Shown here one piece after another: positions 118-18,500 of a DNA stretch of 18,718 nucleotides. Under the pieces are notes generated by a model. It searched no databases, had not been told where the DNA came from, and saw only the letters and a program-made list of their open reading frames with translations. Numbering within the stretch: the first letter of the stretch is position 1; each line of letters begins with the position of its first letter. The translations under genes were made by a program, and so were the position numbers. This stretch comes from a virus, in the UHGV virus genome UHGV-0133874; one strand, given 5' to 3'.

Positions 118-120
118 TAG

Positions 121-1462: not shown

Positions 1463-1654
1463 TTATCGTGAGTTTTTAGTACAGATTTTTTTGGATTTAC
1501 TAATAGTTCCATCATTGCAAACGAATTTGCCATCAGAGGTACAGTGAGAAACACCTCCCTTTTTCCCTGAGCAGGGATAATTTCTAGCATAGGTAGCTAG
1601 TGGGTTTAATAACAAAGAACATGACAAAACCACAAAAAATACCTTACCAAGCAT
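1463..1654 (-). CDS. Small (63 aa) predicted secreted peptide with N-terminal signal peptide and 4 Cys in the mature part; unknown function
   Basis: Hydrophobic N-terminus [23 protein letters not shown] with A-x-A-like cleavage site; GGAG 7 nt upstream of the ATG; AT-rich relative to neighbours; sits between cI and int on the same strand. Confidence 0.5.
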
Positions 1655-1669
1655 AATTTTCTCCCGGTA

Positions 1670-2239
1670 CTATTTAACATACTTGACTGTTAAACTTATA
1701 ATTTTACCAATTATTTCAATGTCTTCTATCTTACATTCAAAGGCTCTGTTTCCACCCTCGACGAAGATTCTTCCACCGGGTAAACGAGTAATGTCACGGA
1801 TCGTTATTTCGCCATCAATACTTATTACCCATTTACCATCACGTATATCATCAAATTCCTTATCACAAATAAATTCAGAATTATTATCTGTGATTACAAA
1901 AAGATTCTTGAATGCCGACGGTAGAAATTCTCTATCGAAAATATAAAAACCGTCTTCACACAAGGCCCCATCAGATAATACATATTTAGCAACTTCCATA
2001 GTATTTGTATTACCTGAAGTTTGCTTTGAACCATGCCCGGTTGTGAGCCAATTAAGCGAGGTGCCTGTTTCAAGGGCGCACTGGATTACCCATTCTGCTG
2101 GGAATGAGTCACGCATGTAGCGTGTGGCGAGTGTACTTTTAGAGATTCCTAAATGATCGCACAACGCCTGTCGAGTCTTGAATCCATAAGCTTCTACCAT
2201 GCGCTCTATGGCGCCTCGTCCGCCTTTCTCCAAATTCAT
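1670..2239 (-). CDS. cI: 186-type CI immunity repressor (N-terminal HTH, C-terminal oligomerisation domain)
   Basis: 189-aa product from ATG at 2237-2239 with GGAG 5 nt upstream; size and position (divergent from apl/cII, upstream of int) match the 186 CI repressor. Confidence 0.85.
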   Translation of the reverse strand: MNLEKGGRGAIERMVEAYGFKTRQALCDHLGISKSTLATRYMRDSFPAEWVIQCALETGTSLNWLTTGHGSKQTSGNTNTMEVAKYVLSDGALCEDGFYIFDREFLPSAFKNLFVITDNNSEFICDKEFDDIRDGKWVISIDGEITIRDITRLPGGRIFVEGGNRAFECKIEDIEIIGKIISLTVKYVK

Positions 2240-2263
2240 GGTCACTCCAAGTGAACTTTTATC

Positions 2264-2292
2264 TTGACGATTTCACCGCGCGATCGTATGTT
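2264..2292 (+). promoter_or_regulatory. Candidate lytic promoter pR (-35 TTGACG, 17-bp spacer, -10 TATGTT) in the cI/apl switch region
   Basis: Sigma70-like hexamers read directly from the sequence, oriented towards apl/cII. Confidence 0.35.
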
Positions 2293-2364
2293 TATGGTGT
2301 TCACAAAATACAAACGATCCGTATTCGTCCTGATTAATCATCATTAAACGAGGAATGTTGCATC

Positions 2365-2586
2365 ATGAGACCTAACATTTCAATCACTCTTACCACGCCT
2401 CATGTGACTATTGAACGCTATAGCGAGCTGACAGGGCTATCCATCGATACCATCAATGACATGTTGGCTGATGGACGCCTTATCCGTCACCGTCTGCGCA
2501 AAGATAAAAAACGCGAAAAAGTGATGATCAACATAGCAGCAATGACCGTTGATGCGCTTTCAGAATGCAATCTAAACCTTAATTAG
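2365..2586 (+). CDS. Small HTH protein at the apl/cox position (putative excisionase and repressor of the lysogenic promoter)
   Basis: 73-aa ORF, first gene rightward of the switch region; assignment is mainly positional. Confidence 0.6.
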
Positions 2587-2618
2587 TTCGATTCTGAAAT
2601 ACATCAGAGGCATTGACC

Positions 2619-3128
2619 ATGTTTGATTACCAAGTTTCCAAACATCCACATTTTGATGAAGCCTGTCGTGCATTTGCACTGCGCCACAATCTGGTGCAAC
2701 TGGCAGAACGTGCAGGCATGAATGTGCAGATTCTGCGGAACAAGCTGAACCCAGCTCAGCCTCATTTATTAACCGCACCAGAAATCTGGCTGCTTACCGA
2801 TCTGACTGAAGATTCAACGCTGGTAGATGGTTTTCTGGCACAGATTCATTGTCTGCCATGTGTACCGATTAATGAGGTGGCAAAAGAGAAACTGCCACAT
2901 TACGTCATGAGTGCAACCGCAGAGATCGGGCGTGTTGCTGCAGGTGCGGTGTCTGGCGATGTAAAAACCTGTGCCGGTCGTCGTGATGCTATCAGCAGCA
3001 TTAACTCTGTAACACGACTGATGGCGCTGGCGGCTGTTTCATTGCAGGCCCGTTTACAGGCTAATCCTGCGATGGCGAGTGCAGTTGATACCGTGACTGG
3101 CCTCGGTGCTTCATTTGGTTTGCTGTGA
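2619..3128 (+). CDS. cII: 186-type CII lysogeny-establishment activator
   Basis: 169-aa product from ATG at 2619 (GAGG 8 nt upstream), the same length as 186 CII; positioned after apl. Confidence 0.8.
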
Positions 3129-3135
3129 GGTGCTT

Positions 3136-3336
3136 ATGCTGACGAAAGAACCATCATTTGCATCGCTGCTGGTTAAACAAAGCCCGGCAATGCATTACGG
3201 TCACGGCTGGATCATGGGGGAGGATGGTAAACGCTGGCATCCGTGCCGTTCACAAGATGAATTGCTGGCAGAACTATCTACGAAAAAACGGGGGAACAAA
3301 TGGCTATTGAAGGCACTGCGGCGACTGTTCCATTAA
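3136..3336 (+). CDS. Small early-region protein, unknown function (position of 186 fil/dhr-type genes)
   Basis: 66-aa ORF from ATG at 3136 with GAGG 5 nt upstream, immediately after the cII stop. Confidence 0.5.
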   Translation: MLTKEPSFASLLVKQSPAMHYGHGWIMGEDGKRWHPCRSQDELLAELSTKKRGNKWLLKALRRLFH

Positions 3337-3641
3337 GCCCCGGTGAACGCCTGAATGGACTTAATCACATTGCGGAGTTAAGGGCGAAAGTTTTTGGCCT
3401 GAATATTGAGTCAGAGCTTGAGCGGTTTATTAAAGATATGCGTGATTCACGGGATATTAATAGCGAACAAAATAAACGGGCACTGGCTGCCATATTCTTT
3501 ATGGCAAAAATTCCAGCTGAACGTCATAGCATCAGCATTAATGAGCTGACCACTGACGAAAAGCGGGAGTTGATTAAAGCAATGAATCATTTTCGTGCAG
3601 TGGTGAGCTTATTTCCCAGACGGCTAACCATGCCGAATTAA
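3300..3641 (+). CDS. Early-region hypothetical protein
   Basis: 113-aa ORF, GGGGA upstream of ATG at 3300; overlaps the preceding ORF by 37 nt, so the true start may be further downstream. Confidence 0.5.
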   Translation: MAIEGTAATVPLSPGERLNGLNHIAELRAKVFGLNIESELERFIKDMRDSRDINSEQNKRALAAIFFMAKIPAERHSISINELTTDEKRELIKAMNHFRAVVSLFPRRLTMPN

Positions 3642-3708
3642 CCAACTAATGAAATTAATGGCGTAAACCCGCCGGGCATCCCTTTATCTAAATTCAGGAG
3701 AATTGATT

Positions 3709-3942
3709 ATGCGTAATATTGAAACCCTCTCGACCAAAACCGGACCGGATGACGCAGGGCTTAATATTTTACTGACAGAGGCTCGTCTGGAAGAACGCCG
3801 GGCAAGGGCTGAAGCAATGGCAGCTCGCCTTGATAGCCTGGCGTGTCATATCACATCCCGCCAGCTAACCCACGTCGAAGCGGCAGAACTGCTTCGTGTG
3901 ACTGCTGAAGCAATCCAGAACGAAGCGCAGGAGATCCACTAA
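3709..3942 (+). CDS. Early-region hypothetical protein (77 aa)
   Basis: ATG at 3709 with AGGAG 8 nt upstream; stop overlaps the next start (TAATG). Confidence 0.55.
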   Translation: MRNIETLSTKTGPDDAGLNILLTEARLEERRARAEAMAARLDSLACHITSRQLTHVEAAELLRVTAEAIQNEAQEIH

Positions 3943-4169
3943 TGGCTGATGCAATGGATCTCGTACAGCAGCGCGTTGAAGAAGAACGCCAACGCCATAT
4001 CCGTGCTGCCCGTGCCAAAACGCCGGGCGTGTCCCGCGTGCTTTGCATTGAGTGTGAAGCGCCAATTCCGCCAGCACGCCGCCGTGCCATTCCGGGTGTG
4101 CAGCTTTGCATTACCTGTCAGGAAATCGCAGAGCTGAAAGGCAAACATTACAACGGAGGTGCTGTATGA
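3942..4169 (+). CDS. TraR/DksA-family C4 zinc-finger protein (phage TraR-like)
   Basis: 75 aa with CxxC-N17-CxxC (CIECEAP...CITCQE); AGGAG upstream. Confidence 0.8.
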   Translation: MADAMDLVQQRVEEERQRHIRAARAKTPGVSRVLCIECEAPIPPARRRAIPGVQLCITCQEIAELKGKHYNGGAV

Positions 4170-5023
4170 GCACCATCCTGAAATGGGCGGGAAATAAAAC
4201 CGCCATTATGTCCGAACTGAAAAAACATCTTCCTGCTGGCCCGCGACTGGTTGAACCTTTCGCGGGTTCCTGTGCTGTGATGATGGAGACGGATTACCCC
4301 AGCTATCTTGTTGCGGATATTAATCCTGATTTAATCAACCTCTATAAAAAGGTTGCTGCTGATTGCAAGGCGTTTATATCTCGTGCCAGAGCTTTATTTG
4401 AGGAAGCAAACAGGGATGTGGCTTATTACAACATAAGGCAGGAGTTTAATTACTCCACTGAAATTACTGATTTCATGAAAGCGGTATATTTCCTGTATCT
4501 CAATCGTCATGGTTACCGTGGGTTATGTCGCTATAACAAGAGCGGGCATTTCAACATTCCGTACGGTAATTATAAAAATCCGTATTTCCCTGAAAAAGAA
4601 ATTCGCGCATTTGCAGAGAAAGCCCAGCGGGCAACGTTTATCTGCGCCAGCTTTGATGAAACGCTGGCGATGCTGCAGGTGGGGGATGTGGTGTATTGCG
4701 ATCCGCCGTATGACGGTACGTTTTCCGGCTATCACACTGATGGTTTCACTGAAGATGACCAGTATCACCTGGCATCCGTTCTTGAACATCGATCATCAGA
4801 AGGATATCCGGTCATTGTTTCTAACAGTGACACATCCCTGATCCGTTCGCTGTATCGCAATTTTACTCACCACTACATCAAGGCAAAACGCAGCATCGGT
4901 GTGGCAGCTGGTGAGAGTAAATCTGCAACAGAAATCATCGCTGTTTCCGGGCCGCGCTGCTGGGTGGGATTTGATCCTTCGCGTGGCGTGGATAGTTCAG
5001 CCGTGTACGGAGTACGTGCATGA
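4166..5023 (+). CDS. dam: DNA adenine methyltransferase, Dam family (probably GATC-specific, N6-adenine)
   Basis: 285-aa product aligns along its length with E. coli Dam as recalled: [15 protein letters not shown] (AdoMet motif), [19 protein letters not shown] catalytic motif; GGAGG 6 nt upstream of ATG 4166. Confidence 0.9.
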
Positions 5024-7434
5024 GTCATGCCGATATGAACAACTGCTGCGGCTTTAACGAGGCTGCCGCAGCGTTCTCATGGAACAGCCCGAAAAAGGCC
5101 ATTAACCCTTATCTGGACCCGGCGGAAGTTGCGCCGGTTTCTGCGCTTTCAAACCTGATCACTCTGTACGCTGCCGATAACGAGCAGGAACAACTGCGCC
5201 GCGAGGCACTGAGTGATCAGGTCTGGGAGCGTTATTTTTTTAATGAATCACGTGATCCTGTCCAGCGCGAAATGGAGCAGGATAAGCTCATTAGCCGGGC
5301 AAAGCTGGCGCATGAGCAGCAGCGTTTTAATCCGGATATGGTCATTCTGGCGGACGTCAACGCCCAGCCTTCCCATATCAGCAAGCCGCTGATGCAACGT
5401 ATTGAATACTTCAGCAGCCTGTGCAGGCCAAAGGCTTATTCCCGCTATTTACGTGAGACAATTAAGCCATGTCTGGAACGACTGGAGCATGTACGCGACA
5501 GCCAGCTATCTGCATCTTTTCGTTTTATGGCAAGCCATGAAGGGCTGGACGGCCTGCTTATCCTGCCTGAAATGAGTCAGGATCAGGTGAAGCGCCTGTC
5601 TACCCTTGTCGCTGCGCATATGAGCATGTGCCTTGATGCCGCTTGTGGTGATTTGTATGCCACCGATGACGTTAAGCCAGAAGAAATCCGCAAAACATGG
5701 GAAAAGGTGGCAGCGGAAACCCTGCGTCTGGATGTTATTCCGCCTGCGTTTGAGCAACTCCGTCGGAAAAGAAACCGCCGTAAACCCGTGCCCTATGAAC
5801 TCATTCCGGGTTCGCTGGCGCGTATGTTGTGTGCCGACTGGTGGTATCGGAAATTATGGAAGATGCGTTGCGAATGGCGGGAAGAGCAGTTGCGTGCTGT
5901 CTGCTTGGTCAGCAAAAAAGCATCTCCCTATGTCAGCTATGAAGCCGTGATGCATAAACGTGAGCAGCGCCGTAAGTCGCTGGAGTTTTTCCGTTCTCAT
6001 GAACTGGTGAACGAAGACGGCGACACGCTGGACATGGAGGATGTGGTAAACGCCAGCAGCAGCAACCCGGCGCATCGCCGCAACGAGATGATGGCCTGTG
6101 TTAAAGGCTTGGAGCTTATCGCGGAAATGCGTGGTGACTGCGCCGTTTTCTACACCATCACCTGTCCGTCACGTTTCCATTCCACGCTAAATAACGGCAG
6201 GCCAAACCCGACCTGGACCAACGCGACAGTAAGACAAAGCAGCGATTATCTGGTCGGCATGTTTGCTGCATTTCGTAAGGCTATGCACAAAGCCGGGTTG
6301 CGCTGGTATGGCGTGCGGGTGGCTGAGCCGCATCATGACGGCACAGTTCACTGGCACCTGTTGTGTTTCATGCGCAAAAAAGACCGCCGCGCCATTACTG
6401 CATTGTTGCGTAAGTTTGCCATCCGTGAAGACCGCGAGGAGCTGGGCAATAACACGGGGCCACGCTTTAAGTCTGAGCTGATAAACCCGCGCAAAGGAAC
6501 GCCGACAAGCTACATTGCGAAATATATCAGTAAGAATATTGACGGGCGTGGTCTGGCTGGCGAGATCAGTAAGGAAACGGGTAAATCCCTGCGTGATAAC
6601 GCTGAATACGTTAATGCCTGGGCGTCTCTGCATCGTGTTCAGCAATTCCGCTTCTTTGGCATTCCGGGGCGTCAGGCTTACCGTGAACTGCGATTGCTGG
6701 CTGGTCAGGCGGCAAGGCAACAGGGTGACAAAAAAGCAGGTGCGCCGGTACTGGATAACCCGCGCCTTGATGCCATCCTGGCTGCTGCTGATGCTGGTTG
6801 TTTTGCCACTTACATCATGAAGCAGGGCGGCGTACTGGTTCCCCGCAAATATCACCTCATCAGAACCGCTTATGAAATAAACGAAGAGCCAACCGCCTAT
6901 GGCGATCACGGTATTCGTATTTATGGCATCTGGTCACCCATTGCAGAGGGCAAGATCTGCACTCATGCAGTGAAGTGGAAAATGGTTCGTAAGGCCGTTG
7001 ACGTTCAGGAGGCGGCAGCCGACCAGGGCGCTTGCGCCCCTTGGACTCGTGGCAATAACTGTCCCCTTGCTGAAAATTTGTACCAACAAGGGAAAGACAA
7101 ATCAGCTGATGGGGATACCAGAACGGATATCACCCGTATGGATGACAAGGAGTTGCACGATTACCTGCACAGTATGAACAAAAAAGAACGCCGGGAACTG
7201 GCTGCAAGGTTACGCCTGGTGAAACCGAAACGGCGTAGAGACTACAAACAGCGAATTACAGACCATCAACGACAGCAGCTCGTCTATGAACTGAAGTCCA
7301 GAGGATTTGATGGCAGCGAGAAAGAGGTCGATTTACTCCTTCGCGGCGGCAGTATTCCGTCAGGAGCAGGCCTGCGTATCTTCTATCGGAACCAGCGTTT
7401 GCAGGAAGATGATAAGTGGCGGGATCTGTATTAA
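5020..7434 (+). CDS. A: P2 gpA-type rolling-circle replication initiator (nicking endonuclease)
   Basis: 804 aa; HxH-type metal-binding motif ([10 protein letters not shown]) and tyrosine-containing active-site segment ([11 protein letters not shown]); start overlaps the dam stop (ATGA). Confidence 0.9.
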
Positions 7435-7503
7435 TTACGCGGGTTAACAATTCGTGCTCTTAATAATACCAGGCATATCAGGCTGATGAACGTAAAAAAA
7501 CGT

Positions 7504-7546
7504 TTTACATCAGTAAGATTATTATATACTGTAAATATAAACAGTG
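7504..7546 (+). promoter_or_regulatory. SOS-regulated promoter with LexA operator (CTGTAAATATAAACAG, 7529-7544)
   Basis: Near-consensus LexA box CTGT-N8-ACAG with AT-rich centre and TA/TG flanks, overlapping a -10-like TATACT (7525-7530), with -35-like TTTACA at 7504-7509. Confidence 0.7.
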
Positions 7547-7587
7547 GTTATGTGTACAGTATTGCTTGTGGTGTCATAGGAGGAAAA

Positions 7588-7776
7588 ATGCAGGACTATT
7601 TTTTGGAGTCTTTGAAGCTCCAGCGCATTGATTTTTTTCTTAAGCTTGTAGCGGCTAGTGAGTGTAGTGATGAAGAGAAGGGGCTGGCTCTGCAGTGGGT
7701 TTCTGAATTGACTGATGAACTCATGGCAAAAATCAGAAGCCACGAATACAACCGCTCAATGGATGTCATCAGCTGA
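7588..7776 (+). CDS. 62-aa ORF, first gene after the LexA box; possibly the N-terminal part of a disrupted tum-like antirepressor gene
   Basis: ATG at 7588 with AGGAGG 4 nt upstream; frame ends 10 nt before the DinI-like ORF, which is in the +1 frame. Confidence 0.5.
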   Translation: MQDYFLESLKLQRIDFFLKLVAASECSDEEKGLALQWVSELTDELMAKIRSHEYNRSMDVIS

Positions 7777-7786
7777 GGTGACTTTT

Positions 7787-8020
7787 ATGCGCATTGAAAT
7801 AATGATCGATAAAGAGCAGAAAATTAGCCAGTCTACCCTGGACGCCCTTGAATCCGAGCTTTACCGCAATCTGCGCCCCCTGTATCCCAAAACGGTAATT
7901 CGTATCCGCAAAGGTAGCTCTAACGGTGTGGAACTGACCGGACTGCAACTGGACGAAGAAAGAAAACAAGTGATGAAAATTATGCAGAAGGTGTGGGAAG
8001 ACGACAGCTGGCTGCATTAA
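7787..8020 (+). CDS. DinI-family protein (DinI / 186 Tum C-terminal-domain-like)
   Basis: 77 aa, MRIEIMIDKEQK...LDALESEL...KVWEDDSWLH matches E. coli DinI as recalled (MRIEVTIAK...IDALAGEL...ETWESADDWF); GAGGTG 6 nt upstream of the ATG. Confidence 0.75.
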   Translation: MRIEIMIDKEQKISQSTLDALESELYRNLRPLYPKTVIRIRKGSSNGVELTGLQLDEERKQVMKIMQKVWEDDSWLH

Positions 8021-8525
8021 GAAACGTTGCTGGCGTCTGAACTTGCTTCTGGCGTCAGCAAGGTTGAACAACGAGCTGTGCGAGGCGTTAGCCATCTGAT
8101 CAAAAGACATCAAATATCATATTGTATATCGTGGTCAAACGCTGGAAACTATCATTCCCGGTCAGAGGGGCTTCTTTCAATGTCCAAAAGAGTGAGATAG
8201 AGGATACAGGATGGGAAGAGCTTATGATGATTGTTCTTGGATTGACTTGGAATATTTGATGTCCATTATCTAATGGACTTGGTCTTGATAGTTATCACGA
8301 AAGAGGAAGCCAACGTCATGTATTTGAAGAGTATCTCTTACCTTTTGATTAATTATTGTCCAAGTTTTTCAAAAGCTTCTTATCTGGCGGTCGATACATG
8401 ATTTACTGTTGGATATGGTATTTAAAATTAATCTTTACACTGTGGTATATGCAGAATAGGATATTATCAATACAATCAAACCGTTTTCATACGGTTGTTA
8501 ATATTGCAATGTTATAGGTAATGTC

Positions 8526-9644
8526 ATGTATCTTTTCAAGTATTACCGTCCGGACTTCTTCTTCGAGAAAGCTATTCGTTATAATGAATTATATTTTTCC
8601 GCTCCTGCGCAATTGAATGATCCTAATGATCTCAATATAGATTATCGTTTTGATAATAAATTGAAATTATGGGATATTTTATTGCGTTCTCCTTGCGATA
8701 AATCCTATGAAAATTTGAGTCACATATTAGATTTGAGTAATTTGAAGATACATAAGGGATTGAATCGTATTTTTAGAGGAAAAAAAATAAAAAGTAGCAT
8801 TGAGTCATTAGATAGCCTGTTTGACTCACACGTTGATGAGATACGTAAGATCATAAATGATGGTTTACTACCTATCAATGTGATTAATTCCGCTATTTAT
8901 GGGAATATTCCTGAACCACGCCAATTTTTGGTCTCACTTTGCGAGAACAGTATCAAAGAAAGGTTGTATAGGAAAATAGTTCCTGCAGTATTCAGTGTGT
9001 CATTTTCAGCTAATGCGTTAGATCGTATGATGTGGGCGCATTATGCTGCAGGCTTTAGTGGTTGTGTTGTGATTTATGAAACGCAGGATTTTAATATTAA
9101 TGGCGTGCCACATCCTGGAATGAAGCTAAGAGAAAATTTATTTTCATCAGATAAATTTAATTTTCCAGTTAAGCAAATAAAATATAGTAATCAGGCTAAA
9201 GAGGTTTCACTTCTAGACCCAAGCGCAAATGTTGCAGAGTTATTTTTAACTAAAAATAGATTTTGGAGATATGAAGCTGAATATCGAATGTTTATTCCAG
9301 AGGCAAATGCAGGAATAGGGAGTGAGCGGCATGTTCAAAGACGCGTAAATCGAAATATTGGACATATTTTTCATCATGATGCTAATGTTGTTAAAGGGAT
9401 CATTTTTGGTCCTAGAATGTGTGAAATGAAAAAAGAAAGCATATGGAATTGTATCAAGTCAAATATGGAGAATTCAAATTCAACAATATGTTATTTTTTT
9501 GACTCTGAGTTATCAGCATCAGGAAAGATTACTATTTCAAAAGGGCAACGAGCGGAAAAAATGAAAAATTTCCCTTTGTTCAGGAACAAGTTAAGTCAGA
9601 CGGAAATGGCTAAAGTTTTGAAGGAAATTGGCATTACGAACTAA
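8526..9644 (+). CDS. DUF2971-like protein (372 aa), function unknown; candidate accessory/defence gene
   Basis: N-terminal pattern FKYYRPDFF...NELYFSAPAQLNDPND and central MWAHYAAGFSGCVVIYE resemble what I recall of the DUF2971 signature; gene is markedly AT-rich versus the phage backbone and sits alone between tum and cos. Confidence 0.6.
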   Translation: MYLFKYYRPDFFFEKAIRYNELYFSAPAQLNDPNDLNIDYRFDNKLKLWDILLRSPCDKSYENLSHILDLSNLKIHKGLNRIFRGKKIKSSIESLDSLFDSHVDEIRKIINDGLLPINVINSAIYGNIPEPRQFLVSLCENSIKERLYRKIVPAVFSVSFSANALDRMMWAHYAAGFSGCVVIYETQDFNINGVPHPGMKLRENLFSSDKFNFPVKQIKYSNQAKEVSLLDPSANVAELFLTKNRFWRYEAEYRMFIPEANAGIGSERHVQRRVNRNIGHIFHHDANVVKGIIFGPRMCEMKKESIWNCIKSNMENSNSTICYFFDSELSASGKITISKGQRAEKMKNFPLFRNKLSQTEMAKVLKEIGITN

Positions 9645-9710
9645 CCTAACAACAGTGCATGCCTATGCTGCCTGAATTTGCATGACCGTTTGAGGATCGT
9701 TTTTGCTAAG

Positions 9711-9735
9711 GCCCGCCAGAACTGGCGGGCTTTTG
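9711..9735 (+). terminator. Rho-independent terminator after the DUF2971-like gene
   Basis: GCCCGCCAG-aa-CTGGCGGGC perfect 9-bp GC-rich stem followed by TTTTG. Confidence 0.7.
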
Positions 9736-9779
9736 CGTGGATCAGGCACCTGCATGAAAACCACTACACAAAGCGGGCA

Positions 9780-9798
9780 GGCGTGGCGGGGATACGAG
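9780..9798. other. Candidate cos cohesive-end sequence (GGCGTGGCGGGGATACGAG)
   Basis: First 13 nt match the 186/P2 cohesive-end sequence as I recall it (186 GGCGTGGCGGGGAAAGCAT); lies between the replication/tum arm and the portal gene, where cos sits in 186. Confidence 0.35.
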
Positions 9799-9900
9799 CG
9801 CGCGCTAACTCATAAATCCTAGATTATTAGTGGATTTATCTCATTGAAATGTGCACTATTCCCAGCATTGAGTTGTACCAGATGTCTTTATGGAGGGACT

Positions 9901-11667
9901 GTGGCTTTTGTAACTGATATTCGGCTTGAAGATAATGCTATTGCTGCACCTGCGACAGCACAGGTTATGGCTCAGAGGCTAGGATCTGTATTACGTAAGA
10001 GATATGAAGAATTCATCCATAAAAGAGAGTGTGCACCAGGCCAAGCAGACTATGATGTAAAAATGGCTAGCAGGGCTTTAGCTGCATTCACTATGTATCA
10101 GTTAGGATGTGTGGATGATAAGTATGCAGGGGAGTCTGTATGTGATAGTAGTGAAGATGGTGGTATAGATGGAATAGCAATCAACCATAACGAAAAAATC
10201 GTTGTTGTTGTTCAATCAAAATTTCACCAATCGGGAAACGGCACTTGGACAAGAGCCGATTTTATGTGTTTTAAGGATGCTTGTGAGAAGCTACAAAGTG
10301 AAAGATACGAATTATTTGATTCCATATTGCAAAATAAAAGCGGGGAAATAAGTGCGGCTTTAAGTAGTTTTGAATACAAGTTCATCTTTGCGATGGCGCA
10401 TACAGGTAAAAAAGGTGCTGCAGAGGAAATATTAAATGATATGCGGGAATGGCAATATCAATTAAACGCTGCAGCTTTTACACCTGAGGATGAGCCTAAA
10501 GAGAACTGGGGATTTCAGGTTCATTTAATATCCTCTGAAGATATGATGCATTGGTTACAGAATGGCTCTCGAAATCAAATTGATCTTAACAGGGTTGAAA
10601 TTGAGCGTTTTGGATTTTTGAATGAACCATATCAAGCTTTTTACGGGGCTATTAGTGGTGATCAAGTTGCAGAATGGTGGGAAGAGCATGGTGCTCGATT
10701 ATTTACAAAAAACATAAGGAATATGCTTGGTAAAACAGAAGTGAATGAGGAAATAAAAAAGACAGCTATAGATAATCCTGATATGTTTTGGTTTTATAAT
10801 AATGGGATTACTGTACTGGTTAAGGAAGTTGTTCCTCATAGACGAAACGCAGCTCCTAATATAGAGAGAGGGATTTTTGATTTTCGTGATGTAAGTGTCA
10901 TTAATGGTGCACAAACAGTCAGTAGTATTGGCGCATGTAAAGATGCACTTGGTGAAAACATATATAGACTCAAAGTGCCAGCTAGATTCATTGTTATAGA
11001 TGATGATACTGATAATTTAACTGCAAATGCAATTACAAAAGCTAACAATTTCCAAAATAGAGTATTGGGAAGAGATTTTGCATCGCAGCAGGCAGATCAA
11101 CATAGATTGGCAAGGGAGTTAGTGCTTGAAGGATATCAATATCAGTTACTAAGAACAGATGAAGATCATTCACAGACAAATACGAAAGTCATTGACTTGG
11201 ATGAGGCGCTCAATGCACTCGCATGTTTAAGTAAAAATAATACGGTTGTATCGACACTAAAATCAAATCGCGGTAGGTTTTTTGAAAATTTTGAAGGCTC
11301 TCTATATAAAACTATTTTCAATCCAAGATTAAGTGGTTTAAAACTTATCAATACTGTTCTACATTTTAGAGTTATAGATAAGTTGATCGGTAAAACATTA
11401 CTATCAGTAGATAAAACGACCCATAGTCGCAAGCATTTAATTATTACGCATGGTAATAGATACTATGCGTCTGTACTATTGAGCAACGTTTCTGGGATAC
11501 ATAATAGCTCAGAAATTCTTGTTCCAGATGAAAAAAATCTTTCCGAAGAATTAAGTGCATTAATTCAACGTGCTGAAGAGTACATTGAAGATAATTACCC
11601 GAATGCCTATCCGGCAAGATTTTTTGCAAATCCAACGAAAATACAAGAGTTATACGATAATGTTTAA
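9901..11667 (+). CDS. Protein with N-terminal Mrr-like PD-(D/E)xK nuclease motif and AIPR-like C-terminal region (abortive-infection-type); candidate anti-phage effector
   Basis: Open frame 9844-11667 (607 aa from TTG 9844; 588 aa from GTG 9901 with GGAGGG 3 nt upstream; ATG at 9967 also in frame). DGGIDGIAI...KIVVVVQSKF resembles the Mrr catalytic D...(Q/E)xK motif; WFYNNGITVL and INGAQT resemble AIPR-family motifs as I recall them; AT-rich. Confidence 0.75.
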   Translation: MAFVTDIRLEDNAIAAPATAQVMAQRLGSVLRKRYEEFIHKRECAPGQADYDVKMASRALAAFTMYQLGCVDDKYAGESVCDSSEDGGIDGIAINHNEKIVVVVQSKFHQSGNGTWTRADFMCFKDACEKLQSERYELFDSILQNKSGEISAALSSFEYKFIFAMAHTGKKGAAEEILNDMREWQYQLNAAAFTPEDEPKENWGFQVHLISSEDMMHWLQNGSRNQIDLNRVEIERFGFLNEPYQAFYGAISGDQVAEWWEEHGARLFTKNIRNMLGKTEVNEEIKKTAIDNPDMFWFYNNGITVLVKEVVPHRRNAAPNIERGIFDFRDVSVINGAQTVSSIGACKDALGENIYRLKVPARFIVIDDDTDNLTANAITKANNFQNRVLGRDFASQQADQHRLARELVLEGYQYQLLRTDEDHSQTNTKVIDLDEALNALACLSKNNTVVSTLKSNRGRFFENFEGSLYKTIFNPRLSGLKLINTVLHFRVIDKLIGKTLLSVDKTTHSRKHLIITHGNRYYASVLLSNVSGIHNSSEILVPDEKNLSEELSALIQRAEEYIEDNYPNAYPARFFANPTKIQELYDNV

Positions 11668-11670
11668 ACT

Positions 11671-11697
11671 AAAGGGAGGTTGCCTCCCTTTTTTTTA
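11671..11697. terminator. Bidirectional rho-independent terminator between the AIPR-like gene (+) and portal gene Q (-)
   Basis: AAAGGGAGG-ttg-CCTCCCTTT hairpin flanked by a T-run on the plus strand and an A/T-rich tract on the minus strand. Confidence 0.7.
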
Positions 11698-11698
11698 A

Positions 11699-12727
11699 TT
11701 AGAAATGGTATTCTTGGAATTCAATAACACCTTCTTCTATGAAATTGTTTATTTCTTGTAATCTTTTTTGCAATGGCAATAATTCATTACGTACAAATAC
11801 TTTACTCGCCTTCTCTACATCTCCAAAGCCCCCAACATTATTAGGCATTATCCCCATCATTTGCGGCGGCACACGGTGTGCCGCCATCATGTCGTCCCGA
11901 CTCACGTTCTTGATATTCAGAAACTCATCCTTCGCCGCGACTTCTGACAACGGGATAATCTGAAGCCCGTCCTTTTTGCCGTTAGGAGAGTACATAAACA
12001 GGTTGCGGAAGTTGCCTGGCCCTTTGGCGCTTTTCATTGCGTTGCGGAGGTTGTTCACATCTTCTTGGTTCTGCGCGGCATCGGTCATGTACATGATGAA
12101 ACCTGCATGGCTGCCGTTGATGTAATACTTACGGCGGAACAGTGTGGCGGACTCGTTGAGCAGGGCTGACGGGATGGCAGAAAGATAACCTGGCAGGCCG
12201 TAGATCTCCTGGTTGATGTCCGGTTCCATCAGATGAAAAATGCTGCCTTTCGTGAACTGATACGGCTGGGCTGTCATACCGTATTGCACAAACCAGTAGG
12301 TATCCAGGTCTAATCCGCGTCGGGTGTATTTTGCCAAAGCTGGCTCAAGGGCGATAACTTCACCAAAGCGGTTCGTGCGTTTCTCCAGGTAGGCGTTACC
12401 AAATACCAGATAGTCCTGCACAAAACGCGAAAAAGCCTGCTGGCTAAGCAGCGGATGAGGGATATAGGTACTGGTCAGAATGTTGCACTTTACTGCAATC
12501 GGGGAACTGTGATGCACGGCGGCGCGGAAGGTGCGCGCCAGTCCATTAAAGCTGACGGGCGGCTCATACCAGCGATCCATCTGTACGCATTCCACATAGT
12601 CCAGCAGTTCGCGGCGGTCCAGCACGGGGATGGGATCACCAAAGCTGAAAGCCTCAGCCGTTGGGCCGTTGCTTGGTTTTGTGTCGTGATCAACTGTTAC
12701 CTGCTTGGTGTTTTTACGTTTGCTCAT
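11699..12727 (-). CDS. Q: Portal protein (P2 gpQ / 186 W family)
   Basis: 342 aa, position immediately downstream of the terminase genes on the minus strand; P2 Q is about the same length. Confidence 0.9.
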   Translation of the reverse strand: MSKRKNTKQVTVDHDTKPSNGPTAEAFSFGDPIPVLDRRELLDYVECVQMDRWYEPPVSFNGLARTFRAAVHHSSPIAVKCNILTSTYIPHPLLSQQAFSRFVQDYLVFGNAYLEKRTNRFGEVIALEPALAKYTRRGLDLDTYWFVQYGMTAQPYQFTKGSIFHLMEPDINQEIYGLPGYLSAIPSALLNESATLFRRKYYINGSHAGFIMYMTDAAQNQEDVNNLRNAMKSAKGPGNFRNLFMYSPNGKKDGLQIIPLSEVAAKDEFLNIKNVSRDDMMAAHRVPPQMMGIMPNNVGGFGDVEKASKVFVRNELLPLQKRLQEINNFIEEGVIEFQEYHF

Positions 12728-13431
12728 TCTGCCAGTTCCTTGCTAGCGAGAGGCCATTCGCACATAAACAGCATTTTCCAGTCCTTTTCTGATAATTCTT
12801 TTTTCATATCGTTCAGCCAGTTATCAGTAAACAACATTGCTCCAGATGCTGCTGCGTCATCTGCGGTGAACACCATGCTGGTTACGCTGTTGTTTCTGCA
12901 TAGCTTTTTATATTCCTGCCGTGCCTCTGGGTTAGGGCTGGGAGTGGTGTAGTAGGTGGCGTGGTAGTGTGCGTGCATAGAAATCCCTTTAGCGATGGCA
13001 ATCATATTTCTCGGTGATTCACTCCAGGCATACTCTGACACGTAAACATTTCCACTGAGTGCGGAGGTGAGACTGCTGAGGTCGGTAAAATAAATTACTG
13101 CACCATTCGGAAGCTCCAGATGACTTTTGCCTGATTTTATTTTTCCAGTGTGCGTATAAGCTGCGGCCTGGCTTAAGAATGCTGATACACAGGCTTTGAT
13201 TGCCTGCGCAGATGCTGTGCTGCAGCAGAGGAAAATCTGGTTACGCCCGGTATGCAGTGCATCGTTCAGGGCTTCATAGGAAAAAAAGAAATCCGCGCCT
13301 GCCTGGCGCATTTTTGTGAGTACACGGTTTCTACTCTTTGGGCCAGTGTTCCACTCATACTGGTAAGCAAAGAAAAAGCTATCCACCGGAAGTCCCGCGA
13401 TAGTCATGAGGTTAGTTGGGATTGGGGGCAT
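12724..13431 (-). CDS. Terminase large-subunit ATPase-domain paralog (235 aa), lacking the N-terminal and nuclease domains, with degenerate Walker motifs
   Basis: Aligns by eye to residues ~140-380 of the adjacent P protein (ALNDALHTGRNQIFL vs ALIDALLTGRNQIFL; ELPNGAVIYF vs VLPNGATLYF; TYYTTPS vs TYFSTPS; MLFMCEW vs NLLMCEF); Walker A RQIGAT is RQAGAD and Walker B LYLDEY is VYVSEY; start/stop overlaps with P (TGATG) and Q (ATGA). Confidence 0.7.
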   Translation of the reverse strand: MPPIPTNLMTIAGLPVDSFFFAYQYEWNTGPKSRNRVLTKMRQAGADFFFSYEALNDALHTGRNQIFLCCSTASAQAIKACVSAFLSQAAAYTHTGKIKSGKSHLELPNGAVIYFTDLSSLTSALSGNVYVSEYAWSESPRNMIAIAKGISMHAHYHATYYTTPSPNPEARQEYKKLCRNNSVTSMVFTADDAAASGAMLFTDNWLNDMKKELSEKDWKMLFMCEWPLASKELAE

Positions 13432-15197
13432 CAAAAAATCTCCACAATATTGCTGGTATTGGCGGATTCGCCCTGCAGCGGTTCGTTAAACAGTGCGTGC
13501 ATCGTTGCCCAGGCCAGATCGGCGTGGCTGGCTTCTTCGCTGCGGCTGGCTTCATAGGTTGGGCGGTTGCCGCTCGCGGTGGTGGCGCGACGGATTGCCA
13601 TGAATGACTGCGCTATGTCGGTGTGTCCGGCGTCAAACTCCAGACGGCGGTGGCTGATAATGTCGTAGGCCTTGAGTACCAGGGCGTTTTTAACATTGGG
13701 GTTATAGACAAACTCCCGGACGGCTGGAAAAAACGCTTTCACGTTCTCGTAAACCCCGTGGCCGACACCTGTCGAGTCGATGCCGATGTAGGTCACGTTG
13801 TACTGCTCGGTCAGTTTTTTGATGGCGTCAGCCTGGGCGCGGAAGTCCATCCCACGCCACTGGTGACGCTCAAGAATGCGGAACTTACCACCAGGCACGG
13901 CTGGCGGTGCCACCACTACGCATCCGGCGCTGTCGCCGTTTTGCGTACCTTTTGCCGGGTCATAACCGATCCACACTTCGCGCCAGCCAAACGGGCGCAG
14001 AGCCAGTGCATGAAAGTCGGTCCAGACTTCCCAGCTGTCCACCATGCACGCCTGCAGCTCGCTGAGCGGGAACACGGACGCGAGATCGTCCACAAACTCG
14101 CACATCAGCAGGTTCTGGTATTCGTCCGGGCTGTACTCCATGCGCAACTGGTCAAGGTCGAACAGGTTACAGCCGCCGCGCACCGCATCTTCCACGGTGA
14201 CTATCTGGCGGTATTGCCCGTCTGCGCACAGCAGGCCGGGGGCCAGATTGCTGTGGGACAGGTCGATGTCCACCTTGTCGGCCTTGTTGCGCCCACGGTT
14301 GAACAGCGCACCGGACCAGAACGGATAAGCACTGTGTGTCAGGCTGGATGGCGTGGAAAAATAGGTTTGTCGCCATTTTTTGTGAATAGCCATACCGGAA
14401 GCCACTTTGCGCAGCTCCTGGAATTTCGGTATCCAGAAATATTCATCCAGATACAGGTTGCCGTGATAACTCTGGGCCGTGCGGGCATTGGTGCCGAGGA
14501 AGTAAAGCGTGGCTCCGTTAGGAAGCACCATCGGATCGCCTTTCAGCTCCACCTCGACTTCTTTGGCGAAGTCTATGATGTACTGCTTAAAGACGTGAGC
14601 CTGTGCCTTACTGGCAGAAAGGAAAATCTGGTTACGTCCGGTAAGCAGGGCGTCAATCAGGGCTTCACGGGCAAAGTAAAAGGTCGCGCCGATCTGGCGT
14701 GACTTCAGCAGGTTGCGGATGCGGTTGGTTTTTCCGGCTTCCCACCAGTGGCGCTGGTAGTTGAACATGGAGGAATGGAAAATTTCTTCCAGCTTCTCAA
14801 TCTGTTCATCGGTGAAAACATTCTTTTCCGGCTGACGGCGCGGGCCTTTGTTGCGGTTGGCGACGTTAGGGTTTAAGTCGGCTTCGTTACCGCCATTGTT
14901 AAACTTGCCGATCCGCGCGTGGCGCTCCGACTGGCGCGCCAGCAGGTCAATTTCTTTGAAATCTTTCCCTTCTTTGTGCTCCTTCATAATGAGCTGGCAG
15001 TAGCGTGCGGCGGTGGTGAGCTGCATCTGATCCAGCGGCCCATAGTCACCCCACTTGTCGCGTTTTTTCCAGCTGTGAACGGTTGCAACTTTCTCGCCCA
15101 GCATTTCAGCAATGCGGGCTACGCGGTATCCCTGAAAGTACAGCAGCATGGCCTGCCGACGGGGATCGAGATCTGCGGGTGTCAGTGTGGTGTTCAT
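13431..15197 (-). CDS. P: Terminase large subunit (P2 gpP family), ATPase plus nuclease domains
   Basis: 588 aa; Walker A-like KSRQIGAT, Walker B LYLDEYFW, C-terminal nuclease-type segment IGIDSTGVGHGVYE; P2 P is ~590 aa. Confidence 0.9.
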   Translation of the reverse strand: MNTTLTPADLDPRRQAMLLYFQGYRVARIAEMLGEKVATVHSWKKRDKWGDYGPLDQMQLTTAARYCQLIMKEHKEGKDFKEIDLLARQSERHARIGKFNNGGNEADLNPNVANRNKGPRRQPEKNVFTDEQIEKLEEIFHSSMFNYQRHWWEAGKTNRIRNLLKSRQIGATFYFAREALIDALLTGRNQIFLSASKAQAHVFKQYIIDFAKEVEVELKGDPMVLPNGATLYFLGTNARTAQSYHGNLYLDEYFWIPKFQELRKVASGMAIHKKWRQTYFSTPSSLTHSAYPFWSGALFNRGRNKADKVDIDLSHSNLAPGLLCADGQYRQIVTVEDAVRGGCNLFDLDQLRMEYSPDEYQNLLMCEFVDDLASVFPLSELQACMVDSWEVWTDFHALALRPFGWREVWIGYDPAKGTQNGDSAGCVVVAPPAVPGGKFRILERHQWRGMDFRAQADAIKKLTEQYNVTYIGIDSTGVGHGVYENVKAFFPAVREFVYNPNVKNALVLKAYDIISHRRLEFDAGHTDIAQSFMAIRRATTASGNRPTYEASRSEEASHADLAWATMHALFNEPLQGESANTSNIVEIF

Positions 15198-15243
15198 GGC
15201 ACAAACCTACAGCCTTGAATGAAGGCTTTCCCCGCCTGCGGTT

Positions 15244-15261
15244 TGTGTGGTTGTCGGTACA
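15244..15261. promoter_or_regulatory. Ogr/Delta-type activator binding dyad (TGT-N12-ACA) in the divergent late promoter region between P and O
   Basis: TGTGTGGTTGTCGGTACA fits the P2-family late-promoter element; centred ~87 nt upstream of the O start codon and ~55 nt from the P start codon. Confidence 0.4.
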
Positions 15262-15339
15262 AATACCGCGCATTGTTTCACTGCCCCCATCACCGCAACC
15301 ATAAGGCTCCAGTAAGTTTTTTCTAACGGAGCACGGCTC

Positions 15340-15679
15340 ATGACAGTGAAAGCAAAGCGTTTTCGCATCGGGGTGGAAGGTGCCACCACCGACGGACGCG
15401 AAATCCAGCGTGAATGGCTGGAACAGATGGCAGCCAGCTACAACCCGGCGGTGTATACCGCGCTGATTAACCTTGAGCACATCAAGTCTTATCTGCCGGA
15501 CAGCACCTTTAACCGCTACGGCAAGGTGACGGCGCTGTTTGCTGAAGAAATCACGGAAGGTCCGCTGGCAGGCAAGATGGCGCTGTATGCCGACGTTGAG
15601 CCAACGGAGTCCCTGGTGGAACTGGTGAAAAAAGGCCAGAAATTATTCACCTCTATGGAAGTCAGCCCGAAGTTCGCTG
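15340..15679 (+). pseudogene. O: Capsid scaffold gene O, N-terminal ~110 codons only (truncated by an internal deletion)
   Basis: MTVKAKRFRIGVEGATTDGREIQ...INLEHIKSYLPDSTFNRYGKV...LFTSMEVSPKFAD matches the P2 gpO N-terminus as recalled; after ~15680 the frame reads through tape-measure sequence out of frame to a stop at 15855. Confidence 0.65.
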
Positions 15680-16612
15680 ATATCTGGTCTGTTAGGTGCT
15701 CTGCTCAGTCCGATAGGTCTTGTGGTTACTGCACTGGCGGGCGTGGCGCTGGTTGTCTGGAAATACTGGCAACCCATCACCGCATTTCTCGGTGGCGTGG
15801 TGGAAGGATTCAAAGCGGCGGCAGGTCCCATCAGTGCAGCGTTCGAACCGCTTAAGCCCGTGTTCCAGTGGATTGGCGACAAAGTGCAGGCGCTGTGGGG
15901 CTGGTTTACTGATCTGCTGACGCCCGTTAAGTCGACCTCTGCCGAACTGCAGAGCGCAGCGGCAATGGGGCGGCGATTCGGGGAGGCACTGGCGGAAGGG
16001 CTGAATATGGTCATGCATCCGCTGGACTCCCTGAAATCCGGCGTTTCCTGGTTGCTGGAGAAGCTCGGCATTGTCAGTAAAGAGGCAGCAAAGGCAAAAC
16101 TGCCGGAAAGCGTGACGCGTCAGCAACCTGCGACGGTGAATGCAGACGGTAAAGTGATGATGCCATCGGGTGGTTTTCCATCATGGGGATATGGCTTTGC
16201 GGGGATGTATGACAGCGGCGGGTATATCCCGCGCGGGCAGTTTGGCATCGTCGGTGAAAACGGGCCGGAAATTGTTAACGGCCCGGCAAATGTGACCAGC
16301 CGGAGAAATACAGCTGCACTGGCTGCCGTTGTTGCCGGAATGATGGGCGTTGCTGCCGCGCCAGCAGAGCTTCCACCGTTGCACCCTTTGGCACTTCCCG
16401 CGAAAGGTGGAGAAGCAATTGTGAGTCGCGCAGCCACTGTGCCGCTCGTTCAACGGATTGAGGCACCGACGCAGATCATCATTCAGACGCAGCCAGGACA
16501 AAGTGCGCAGGATATTGCGCGGGAGGTGGCACGCCAGCTTGATGAACGTGAACGCAGGCTGAAGGCAAAAGCCAGGAGTAACTACAGCGATCAGGGGGGA
16601 TACGACGCATGA
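15680..16612 (+). pseudogene. T: Tail tape-measure gene T, C-terminal ~300 codons only (5' portion deleted)
   Basis: Hydrophobic segment (GLLGALLSPIGLVVTALAGVALVV) and C-terminal GQFGIVGENGPEIVNGPANV typical of tape-measure C-termini; in the +1 frame relative to the O remnant, with an upstream in-frame stop at 15626-15628; followed by U and D as in P2. Confidence 0.65.
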
Positions 16613-17094
16613 TGATGGTGCTGGGATTGTACGTGTTTATGCTGCGCACCGTTCCGTATCAGGAACTGCAGTATCAACGCAGCTGGCGACATGCGGCAAA
16701 CAGTCGGGTAAACCGACGTCCGTCCACGCAGTTTCTGGGACCGGAAAACGACATGCTGACGCTTTCCGGTGTTCTTATGCCGGAAATAACAGGCGGCAGG
16801 CTGTCGTTGCTGGCACTGGAGCAGATGGCAGAACAGGGGAAAGCATGGCCCCTGATTGAAGGCAGCGGCACGATTTATGGCATGTATGTGATTGAGGGAC
16901 TGAATCAGACTAAAACGGAGTTTTTCCGCGACGGTATGCCGCGCCGGATTGAGTTCACCCTGTCGCTCAAAAGGGTGGATGAATCATTGTCCGATATGTT
17001 CGGTGATCTCAGTGCGCAACTGAATAATCTGCAGGACACGGCAACATCTGCCTTAAGTGATATCAGTAAAACGGTGGGAGGGCTGCTGTCGTGA
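16609..17094 (+). CDS. U: Tail protein gpU
   Basis: 161 aa (P2 U ~159 aa); ATG overlaps the T stop (ATGA); GGGGGGA 8 nt upstream; T-U-D order. Confidence 0.85.
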   Translation: MMMVLGLYVFMLRTVPYQELQYQRSWRHAANSRVNRRPSTQFLGPENDMLTLSGVLMPEITGGRLSLLALEQMAEQGKAWPLIEGSGTIYGMYVIEGLNQTKTEFFRDGMPRRIEFTLSLKRVDESLSDMFGDLSAQLNNLQDTATSALSDISKTVGGLLS

Positions 17095-18191
17095 ATTTCA
17101 GCTCTGAACTGCTTAACAAAGGCAACAAAACTCCCGCATTCAGCATCAGTATTGAGGGCAGGGATATCACCACAGTGCTGGACAACCGCCTGATGAGTCT
17201 GACGCTGACGGATAACCGGGGCTTTGAAGCGGACCAGCTTGATCTGGAACTGGACGACGCCGACGGAAAAATCGTGCTGCCGCGTCGTGGTGCGGTTATT
17301 ACGCTGGCGCTGGGCTGGAAGGGGCAGCCGCTTTTCCCGAAAGGGGCATTCACGGTGGACGAGATTGAACACACTGGCGCACCGGATCGCCTGACTATCC
17401 GGGCGCGAAGTGCTGATTTTCGTGAAACGCTGAATACCCGCCGTGAAAAATCGTGGCACAAGACCACTGTCGGGGAAGTGGTGAAGGAAATAGCCGCGCG
17501 GCACAAGCTGAAGATGGCACTGGGTAAAGACCTGTCGGATAAGCCCGTGGAGCATATAGACCAGACTAATGAGAGTGACGGCAGTTTTCTGATGCGGCTG
17601 GCGCGACAGTACGGTGCCATCGCGTCGGTGAAAAATGGCAATCTGTTATTCATCCGGCAGGGGCAGGGCAAAAGCGCCACTGGTAAACCACTGCCAGTGA
17701 TCACTATCACACGCAAGGACGGCGACAGTCACCGCTTTACCCTGGCAGATCGCGGAGCCTACACGGGCGTAATTGCCAGCTGGTTGCATACCCGCGAACC
17801 TGCGAAGAAAGAAAGCACCACGGTGAAGCGTAAGCGCAGAACTAAGAAGCAGAAGAAAGAGCCGGAAGCGAAGCAGGGCGATTACCTGGTGGGTACGGAT
17901 GAAAACGTGCTGGTACTTAATCGCACCTATGCCAACCGGGGCAACGCCGAACGGGCAGCGAAAATGCAGTGGGAACGCCTGCAACGCGGTGTTGCGTCAT
18001 TCTCGCTACAACTGGCAGAAGGTCGGGCAGATCTCTACACGGAAATGCCAGTGAAAGTCAGTGGCTTTAAACAGCCGATAGATGATGCGGAATGGACTAT
18101 TACCACCCTGACGCATACTGTCAGCCCGGATAACGGTTTTACGACCAGTCTGGAGCTTGAAGTGAGGATTGATGATTTCGAAATGGAATGA
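17091..18191 (+). CDS. D: Tail protein gpD (late gene D)
   Basis: 366 aa; GTG start overlapping the U stop, with GGGAGGG 8 nt upstream; position between U and ogr. Confidence 0.85.
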   Translation: MNFSSELLNKGNKTPAFSISIEGRDITTVLDNRLMSLTLTDNRGFEADQLDLELDDADGKIVLPRRGAVITLALGWKGQPLFPKGAFTVDEIEHTGAPDRLTIRARSADFRETLNTRREKSWHKTTVGEVVKEIAARHKLKMALGKDLSDKPVEHIDQTNESDGSFLMRLARQYGAIASVKNGNLLFIRQGQGKSATGKPLPVITITRKDGDSHRFTLADRGAYTGVIASWLHTREPAKKESTTVKRKRRTKKQKKEPEAKQGDYLVGTDENVLVLNRTYANRGNAERAAKMQWERLQRGVASFSLQLAEGRADLYTEMPVKVSGFKQPIDDAEWTITTLTHTVSPDNGFTTSLELEVRIDDFEME

Positions 18192-18281
18192 TTCTTCGCA
18201 ATGGAGAACTTTTAAGTTTGCAAAATGGAATAATGCGGTATCATTATTGTGAATTTAGCAAAAATGGGGAGAACTCGAAAA

Positions 18282-18500
18282 ATGATGATTTGCCCACTGT
18301 GTGGAAGTGCCGCCCATACTCGCAGCAGTTTTCAGGTATCTTCATTGACCAAAGAGCGTTACAACCAGTGCCAGAATATTAACTGCAGCCATACTTTTGT
18401 AACCCATGAAACTTTTGTTCGTTCGATTGCAACGCCAAAAGAGTCAAATCCGGTTCAGCCGCATCCAATGAAATCAGGACAGGTGGCGCTCTCTCTTTGA
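18282..18500 (+). CDS. ogr: Ogr/Delta-family zinc-finger late-gene transcriptional activator (186 B equivalent)
   Basis: 72 aa from ATG 18282: MMICPLCGSAAHTRSS...KERYNQCQNINCSHTF matches P2 Ogr as recalled (CPLCQHAAHARTS...KERYHQCQNVNCSATF), with C-x2-C...C-x4-C zinc ligands; the ORF-track start at 18249 is probably too far upstream. Confidence 0.85.
   Translation: MMICPLCGSAAHTRSSFQVSSLTKERYNQCQNINCSHTFVTHETFVRSIATPKESNPVQPHPMKSGQVALSL

Follow-up and report, generated by a model that had tools for sequence, protein, structure and literature searches.

The virus genome UHGV-0133874, whose 18,718 nucleotides are called the window below, is a 186/P2-like prophage of Escherichia coli. Between its large terminase gene P and its portal gene Q lies an additional gene, which we call X (12724-13431, minus strand, an uninterrupted open reading frame of 235 codons counted from the ATG). 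X encodes a stand-alone paralog of the ATPase domain of a large terminase subunit (TerL), and it belongs to a conserved, uncharacterised family of such ATPase-domain paralogs of P2-like phages, within which it falls in a clade with a rewired Walker A/B pair. The gene is a nonessential, optional accessory of a subset of these phages. It is selectively maintained and is neither a recombination scar nor a broken duplicate. With a probability that we put at roughly 40%, X would act as a nucleotide-bound TerL look-alike whose partners are TerL-targeting factors, for which it would be a decoy, or, as the next most likely partner, P itself.

The relationship between X and P is clear at the level of sequence and domains. 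Residues 19 to 227 of X align with residues 142 to 368 of P at 32% identity (BLASTP, E = 1e-30), which confirms the paralogy proposed in an earlier note that was made from the DNA sequence alone. X matches the Pfam family Terminase_6N (PF03237; E = 8e-16, 58.7 bits against a cut-off of 22) and also phrog_3746 (E = 1e-83); no NCBIfam match was found for it. The Terminase_5 helix-turn-helix (HTH) domain (PF06056, P residues 11 to 68) and the RNaseH-like nuclease domain Terminase_6C (PF17289, P residues 410 to 571) were detected in P and not in X, so the absence of the N-terminal region and of the nuclease was also described correctly. The C terminus of X falls at the ATPase/nuclease boundary of P, and its lid insertion is about 40 residues shorter than that of TerL. 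AlphaFold2 gave an unusable model when only the 21-sequence family alignment was supplied (predicted local distance difference test [pLDDT] score, 47.6), but after addition of 100 distant relatives it gave a confident one (pLDDT, 88.6; predicted template modelling score, 0.88). In a Foldseek search of the PDB with this model, the best matches were TerL ATPase domains, namely those of T4 gp17 (E = 1.5e-9; query-normalised template modelling score [TMq], 0.71), P74-26 (TMq, 0.62 to 0.70), D6E, HK97, and Sf6. A match was also obtained with the PhiV-1 terminase in complex with Avs3 (8dgc_E), on which X can be superposed (TMq, 0.70). X is thus predicted to have the complete fold of a TerL ATPase domain, without HTH or nuclease, and against the family that includes P2 gpP/186 gpW, T4 gp17, and P74-26 TerL the TMq is 0.67 to 0.73.

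Most of the nucleotide pocket is kept in X, and it is the best-conserved part of the protein, whereas the remainder drifts. We assessed conservation in 21 family members, in 52 unique IMG/VR proteins, and in 27 cluster representatives, with 55 full-length P2-type TerLs as the comparison set. The adenine-binding YQ (residues 23 and 24, 13360-13365, minus strand), which pairs with the YQ of T4 gp17 in a profile alignment, is retained, as is the C (coupling) motif TTP (residues 162 to 164, 12940-12948, minus strand). In the Walker A motif KMRQAGAD (residues 40 to 47, 13291-13314, minus strand), Lys40, Arg42, and Gly45 of the P-loop are the same as in KSRQIGAT of P, but the Mg-ligand Thr is replaced by Asp47. 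In the Walker B strand NVYVSE (residues 128 to 133, 13033-13050, minus strand; NLYLDE in P) the Asp is replaced by Ser132 and the catalytic Glu133 is kept. These are the changes from GAT to GAD and from LDE to VSE that the earlier note had reported, and the alignment with P confirms both. Asp47 is present in 52/52 unique IMG/VR copies and in 27/27 cluster representatives, and Glu133 in 52/52 of the IMG/VR copies; neither residue varies, even in copies with only 35% identity. At position 132, 50/52 copies have Ser, and Ala, Leu, Pro, and Gly are tolerated across the sets, but it is never Asp. None of the 55 full-length TerLs has a Walker A Asp or lacks the Walker B Asp, and all 55 have T or S at the Walker A position. 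The conserved blocks of X are the ATPase motifs themselves (the adenine YQ, K-M-R-Q-x-G-A-D, TGRNQ, N-V-Y-x-S-E, Y-T-T-P-S, and MLFMCEW), with Q24, R42, and T162-T163-P164 conserved across the family.

In canonical P-loops, Mg is bound by the hydroxyl of the Walker A residue, to which the Walker B Asp forms a hydrogen bond. Since X-type proteins have gained a Walker A Asp and lost the Walker B Asp across the whole clade, the Mg site looks rewired rather than decayed. The loss of ATP hydrolysis that the note had predicted from the two substitutions is therefore not established: the catalytic Glu, the P-loop Lys and Arg, the adenine Gln, and the C motif are invariant, and the replacement of Thr by Asp is coupled to the loss of the Walker B Asp.

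What has been lost lies elsewhere in the domain. Several residues with at least 85% conservation among full-length TerLs are gone from X-type proteins, namely S194-A-S..Q199, G220, T236-N..Q242, H288, W294, D326, and R330. They include three motifs that hardly vary in the 55 full-length P2-type TerLs: SAS..Q, which follows strand 2, TN...Q in the loop that precedes Walker B, and the lid motif WRQ (R330); the residues of S194-A-S..Q199 and T236-N..Q242 and R330 are kept in at most 26% of X-type representatives, and in 0 to 15% at most positions. The motor of P74-26 TerL needs a trans-acting Arg139, a DNA-gripping basic patch, and an interfacial lid residue, Arg235 (PMC5389665). The lost motifs appear to lie in the parts of the fold that correspond to these motor elements, and X is therefore unlikely to be a working motor subunit. 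PDB sequence searches with P returned nothing relevant; in the profile search the sole match to the ATPase region was a weak one to T4 gp17, and all further terminase hits were confined to the nuclease.

A domain that keeps its pocket but has lost the pre-Walker-B loop and the lid Arg could still serve the packaging motor of its own phage. As a regulatory pseudo-subunit, X would bind P through the ATP-pocket face, donate no trans-acting or DNA-gripping elements, and either cap or restrain P oligomers or help them to dock on Q, thereby tuning when, or how accurately, cos is cleaved and DNA is packaged. The comparable regions of P74-26 TerL hold Arg139 and Arg235 (PMC5389665), a correspondence that we infer, and this pattern of loss would fit such a role. 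The gene order agrees with it as well, because the strict P-X-Q arrangement with start/stop overlaps on both sides occurs in 62/62 loci and in distant clusters. We consider this explanation possible but rather unlikely, for reasons that come from the distribution of X and are given below.

In the window, P (13431-15197, minus strand; 588 amino acids with the Terminase_5 HTH, ATPase, and RNaseH-like nuclease domains) lies directly upstream of X in the same operon, and Q (11699-12727, minus strand; 342 amino acids, Pfam Phage_portal and phrog_68) lies directly downstream. Translational coupling of X on both sides, another feature that had been pointed out before, is borne out. At the P/X junction (13429-13443, minus strand) a GGAG (13443-13440) and an 8-nucleotide spacer precede TGATG, in which the P stop TGA (13433-13431) overlaps the X ATG (13431-13429). 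At the X/Q junction the two genes overlap in ATGA (12724-12727, minus strand), with the X stop TGA at 12726-12724 and the Q ATG at 12727-12725. A promoter scan found no sigma-70-like promoter upstream of X within P.

This arrangement is not a peculiarity of one prophage. A search for P-X-Q elsewhere, which the earlier note had suggested, gave 64 X loci in IMG/VR, at 35 to 100% identity, in which 61/61 full-length copies are intact. In 62/62 evaluable loci the order is P-X-Q, the start of X lies at most 3 nucleotides from the end of P, and X overlaps the start of Q. The copies hold a length of 227 to 241 amino acids down to 35% identity and share 54 invariant columns, which are concentrated in the ATPase motifs. 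Homologs in the protein database (233 to 241 amino acids, 50 to 91% identity) come from Escherichia, Salmonella, Citrobacter, Klebsiella, Leclercia, and Phytobacter, and genome scans added Pantoea and a 38%-identical copy from Atlantibacter, likewise between P and Q. The record of Escherichia phage 500465-1 (L001, 2883-4640) lists a truncated X homolog of 531 bp and a portal gene in two pieces, which suggests frameshift errors or real decay in that assembly.

The ratio of nonsynonymous to synonymous substitutions (dN/dS), also proposed in the earlier note as a check for purifying selection, is 0.18 to 0.37 for X, compared with 0.01 to 0.08 for P and 0.01 to 0.12 for Q in the same prophage pairs (pairwise, Nei-Gojobori). 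X is under purifying selection that is about five-fold relaxed relative to P. The idea that X is a nonfunctional remnant of a tandem duplication or recombination could draw on this relaxation relative to P and Q, on a GC content below that of P, and on the rarity of X among E. coli prophages. However, every full-length copy is intact at a nearly constant length, dN/dS is well below 1, the invariant columns are centred on the ATPase motifs, and the start/stop overlaps are conserved. We regard a remnant as effectively refuted, and the recombination scar or pseudogene that the note had allowed for can be set aside on the same evidence.

X is also an optional insertion. P and Q adjoin without X in phage Cartapus, in many Klebsiella phages, and in most E. 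coli prophages with approximately 95% nucleotide-identical P and Q. About 20 of the 1,270 complete E. coli genomes that have this P-Q locus carry X, and in about 1,250 the two genes are directly adjacent, so X was rightly singled out as an extra open reading frame between genes that are normally neighbours. Compared with X-less relatives, the insertion or replacement cassette consists of X plus the 5' approximately 22 codons of Q (12659-13428, minus strand). In blastn comparisons with Cartapus and with E. coli ES1, SCU-176, and E1620, homology on the P side extends down to 13429 and on the Q side resumes from 12658-12661. Accordingly, the N terminus of Q reads MSKRKN.. in phages with X and MGKSKKNRAAA.. 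in phages without it, and the Shine-Dalgarno sequence and ATG used by X are those that serve Q in X-less phages. The GC content of X is 47.7%, against 56.5% for P, and at third codon positions the fractions are 0.51 and 0.70. Plaque-forming phages are among the carriers, as Yersinia phage vB_YpM_MLG42 has an X-type gene and Salmonella phage PSP3 has a short paralog of another group, orf2, in the same slot.

The P protein of the window is identical to WP_001098431.1, and this same protein occurs with X in the window, in E. coli 1008S13, and in FORC_081, and without X in E1620. P is therefore not adapted to X, and we rejected co-adaptation of the two. Moreover, in two prophages, X alleles whose proteins differ by 23% stand beside P proteins with 99.5% identity. 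Because the same P occurs with and without X, the distribution is optional, and the copies are intact and under selection, X can be neither an essential component of packaging nor a pseudogene. These observations also speak against a regulatory pseudo-subunit of the phage's own motor, because X is absent from phages with an identical or nearly identical P and a similar Q, and because strongly divergent X alleles pair with virtually one P, as if X and P re-assorted freely.

They also bear on the function that the earlier note had proposed, in which X is a dominant-negative poison of foreign P2-type terminases, directed at superinfecting P2-like phages or at satellite-directed packaging. An ATPase-only protein without trans-acting elements could in principle poison a ring ATPase, and an accessory gene with a patchy distribution would fit such a role. 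However, the cognate P is the very protein found in X-less prophages and thus shows no trace of having become resistant. X is co-translated with P from the late operon and has no promoter-like site of its own, which makes expression in a lysogen unlikely. P4-type satellites use the P of their helper, so X could not discriminate, and the genes of a sister subgroup belong to the early operon. A packaging inhibitor of this kind is disfavoured, and we hold it to be improbable.

The wider family adds a second genome position. A profile search of 1.8 billion representative sequences gave 352 proteins at E values of 0.001 or below. After X itself, the top scorers were about 40 clusters of ATPase-only proteins of 215 to 285 amino acids, which ranked ahead of the full-length terminases. 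The ATPase-only family comprises dozens of clusters at 50% identity, occupies two alternative genome positions, and can be divided into three groups, from all of which the TN...Q loop is absent. The first consists of GAD/SE proteins that resemble X and lie between P and Q. The second is a sister "RNK" subgroup (for example, the proteins P0063, P0065, and P0090), whose members are, like X, ATPase-only proteins of P2-like phages and share the derived residues Asp47, Ser/Pro132, Ala/Ser135, and Pro140. Unlike X, they are encoded in the early operon, whose end they occupy directly behind replication gene A. This was seen in three independent P2-like phages, in which the gene runs on the other strand from Q and P, and P and Q are adjacent; the coordinates are 6001-6750, 6001-6738, and 6001-6681 of loci L018, L025, and L026, respectively. 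The third group consists of short proteins with canonical Walker motifs that lie between P and Q, such as PSP3 orf2 and protein P0053. In a neighbour-joining tree, 37/37 GAD/SE proteins fell inside a clade of 38, and 54/57 short paralogs were set apart from full-length TerLs. Because the exact bipartitions lacked bootstrap support, a single origin is only suggested.

PSP3 orf2 (NP_958057.1; L028, 1217-1963) is among the closest known counterparts. Like X, it lies between P and Q and overlaps both genes at its start and stop; its protein of 248 amino acids matches P in the ATPase domain only. In contrast to X, it has a canonical Walker A GAT, and its Walker B Asp is kept while the catalytic Glu has become Asp (LDD for LDE). 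It is just 32% identical to X and belongs to the canonical short group rather than to the GAD/SE clade. Its GenBank note of 2003 reads "similar to 186 W; similar to orf3." A P-X-Q type of arrangement has thus already been recorded at the level of annotation, and the X family carries a generic database name only; X itself is RefSeq WP_136672174.1 in E. coli 1008S13, annotated as a "terminase large subunit domain-containing protein." Literature searches that covered truncated terminases of P2-like phages, PSP3, and the phages that carry X turned up no discussion or functional study of this gene between P and Q. That short paralogs with canonical Walker motifs, such as PSP3 orf2 and P0053, fill the same slot would suit a regulatory pseudo-subunit of the packaging motor, but the early-operon location of a sister subgroup, at a distance from P and Q, would not.

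The early-operon position raises another explanation, in which X works independently of terminase partners, either as a small nucleotide-binding or nucleotide-hydrolysing protein (a sponge or hydrolase for a nucleotide-derived signal) or as a DNA-binding ATPase in replication or recombination. The sister subgroup lies directly after replication gene A, and the nucleotide pocket is what X conserves most while the rest drifts. Yet X is least conserved in the region that corresponds to the DNA-gripping patch, the conserved coupling to P and Q would be left unexplained, and we know of no precedent for a TerL fold in nucleotide signalling or in replication or recombination. The isolated ATPase domain of P74-26 TerL binds DNA (PMC5389665), which also speaks for this explanation. 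On balance, we think it doubtful that X acts apart from terminase partners.

The explanation that we favour is the look-alike. X would still bind nucleotide but would neither translocate nor cut DNA, and it would display the ATP-pocket face of a terminase to any partner that recognises this face. In its late P-X-Q form it would be made at the time and dose of P, and in the early-operon sister form before P. The partners that we favour, speculatively, are TerL-targeting factors, such as the Avs1-3 or Upx terminase-sensing receptors or other TerL-binding antagonists, in which case X would be a decoy or anti-defence protein. Alternatively, since the ATP-pocket face is also read by the adjacent TerL subunit of a ring, X might cap or modulate oligomers of P itself; our preference for the decoy over such capping is slight and speculative. 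In its most specific form the decoy hypothesis states that X-type proteins are an unrecognised class of terminase look-alikes that, owing to an ATP/Mg pocket that is kept yet rewired, fill the terminase-binding pocket of Avs1-3, Upx, or other TerL-targeting antagonists without triggering them, and that are delivered before or one-for-one with P; taken as a whole, this is tentative and rather unlikely. It fits the patchy distribution, the faster evolution, the altered Mg site, and the production before or with P. An approximately five-fold faster evolution than that of P, together with divergent X alleles beside nearly the same P, is a pattern typical of conflict genes, and we count it in favour of a decoy.

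Work on Avs receptors is in keeping with such a role. EcAvs2 is activated by the TerL ATPase domain alone, and it contacts the ATP and the Mg hydration shell of the terminase through a bridging ATP (PMC13601566). The T4 protein vs.8 is, like X, a stand-alone and lineage-restricted paralog of the terminase ATPase domain of its own phage; it engages EcAvs2, and it is discussed as an Avs2 ligand and, in the suggestion of the authors, as one of a set of proteins that may be anti-defence factors (PMC13601566). Unlike X, vs.8 stems from an independent duplication in T4-like phages, conserves canonical Walker A and B motifs, and is not located between terminase and portal. Several points weigh against the look-alike, and against the decoy in particular. 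From a faithful TerL mimic one would expect activation of Avs and not a block, and a good mimic could equally be a trigger; vs.8 is in fact toxic together with EcAvs2 (PMC13601566). The PADLOC-DB defence-protein models gave no match for X, although neighbouring genes match AbiU and PDC-S31. The location of X inside the tightly coupled P-Q operon, and not in the adjacent accessory hotspot, points to a role linked to packaging. In a few proteins of the early-operon subgroup both Walker positions are Ser, so a strict Asp/Ser compensation is not universal. Finally, nucleotide binding by the rewired site is something that we infer from conservation alone.

TerL is the best-documented protein "pattern" sensed by bacterial immunity of the NLR (nucleotide-binding, leucine-rich repeat) type, and it is also a model ring motor. 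Both subjects are touched by a conserved, optional copy of the ATPase domain alone, in which the Walker A Asp is invariant and the Walker B Asp is missing. The X family is a natural experiment in rewiring the Mg site of a P-loop, and X is a candidate terminase decoy or motor regulator. If the decoy hypothesis is true, X-type proteins would be pattern-recognition decoys made from the sensed pattern itself. The system is also tractable, as there are plaque-forming carriers (MLG42 and PSP3), near-isogenic X-less phages, and an identical cognate P with and without X.

Some further features of the locus should be mentioned. The open reading frame of X is one codon longer if the TTG at 13434, chosen by the ORF finder, is taken as the start. 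The 3' end of P reads ATT TTT TGA TG at 13429-13439 of the window, and a -1 slip on the run of six T residues would join the frame of X through TTG-ATG. We rejected a P-X fusion produced in this way, as X-less phages have the same run ahead of Q and PSP3 does not have it; the run probably serves only to space the ribosome-binding site from the start codon. A GC-rich inverted repeat, GCGCC-TGCCT-GGCGC, at 13294-13310 inside the Walker A codons of X was flagged as terminator-like on both strands and is probably a by-product of the RQAGA codons.

The prophage in the window is a deletion derivative. Positions 1-15682 are 99.99% identical to the prophage of E. coli strain 1008S13, which is intact, and the match stops at 15682 inside the scaffold gene O. 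Beyond this point the window holds the C-terminal 296 amino acids of the tape measure protein (15722-16612), gpU (16609-17094), and gpD (17091-18191). The region concerned by the deletion is 15340-18382, and the deleted prophage is without capsid, small terminase, lysis, and most tail genes, while P-X-Q is intact. An accessory hotspot at 8526-11667, flanked by the replication/DinI genes and Q, contains two genes of low GC content (33 to 37%), which encode a DUF2971 protein matching the PADLOC candidate PDC-S31 and an AIPR protein matching AbiU. Other prophages that carry X have DarT/macro, TIR, or DEAD-box helicase genes at this hotspot, and an AIPR protein identical to that of the window is also found in the X-less prophage of E. 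coli ES1.

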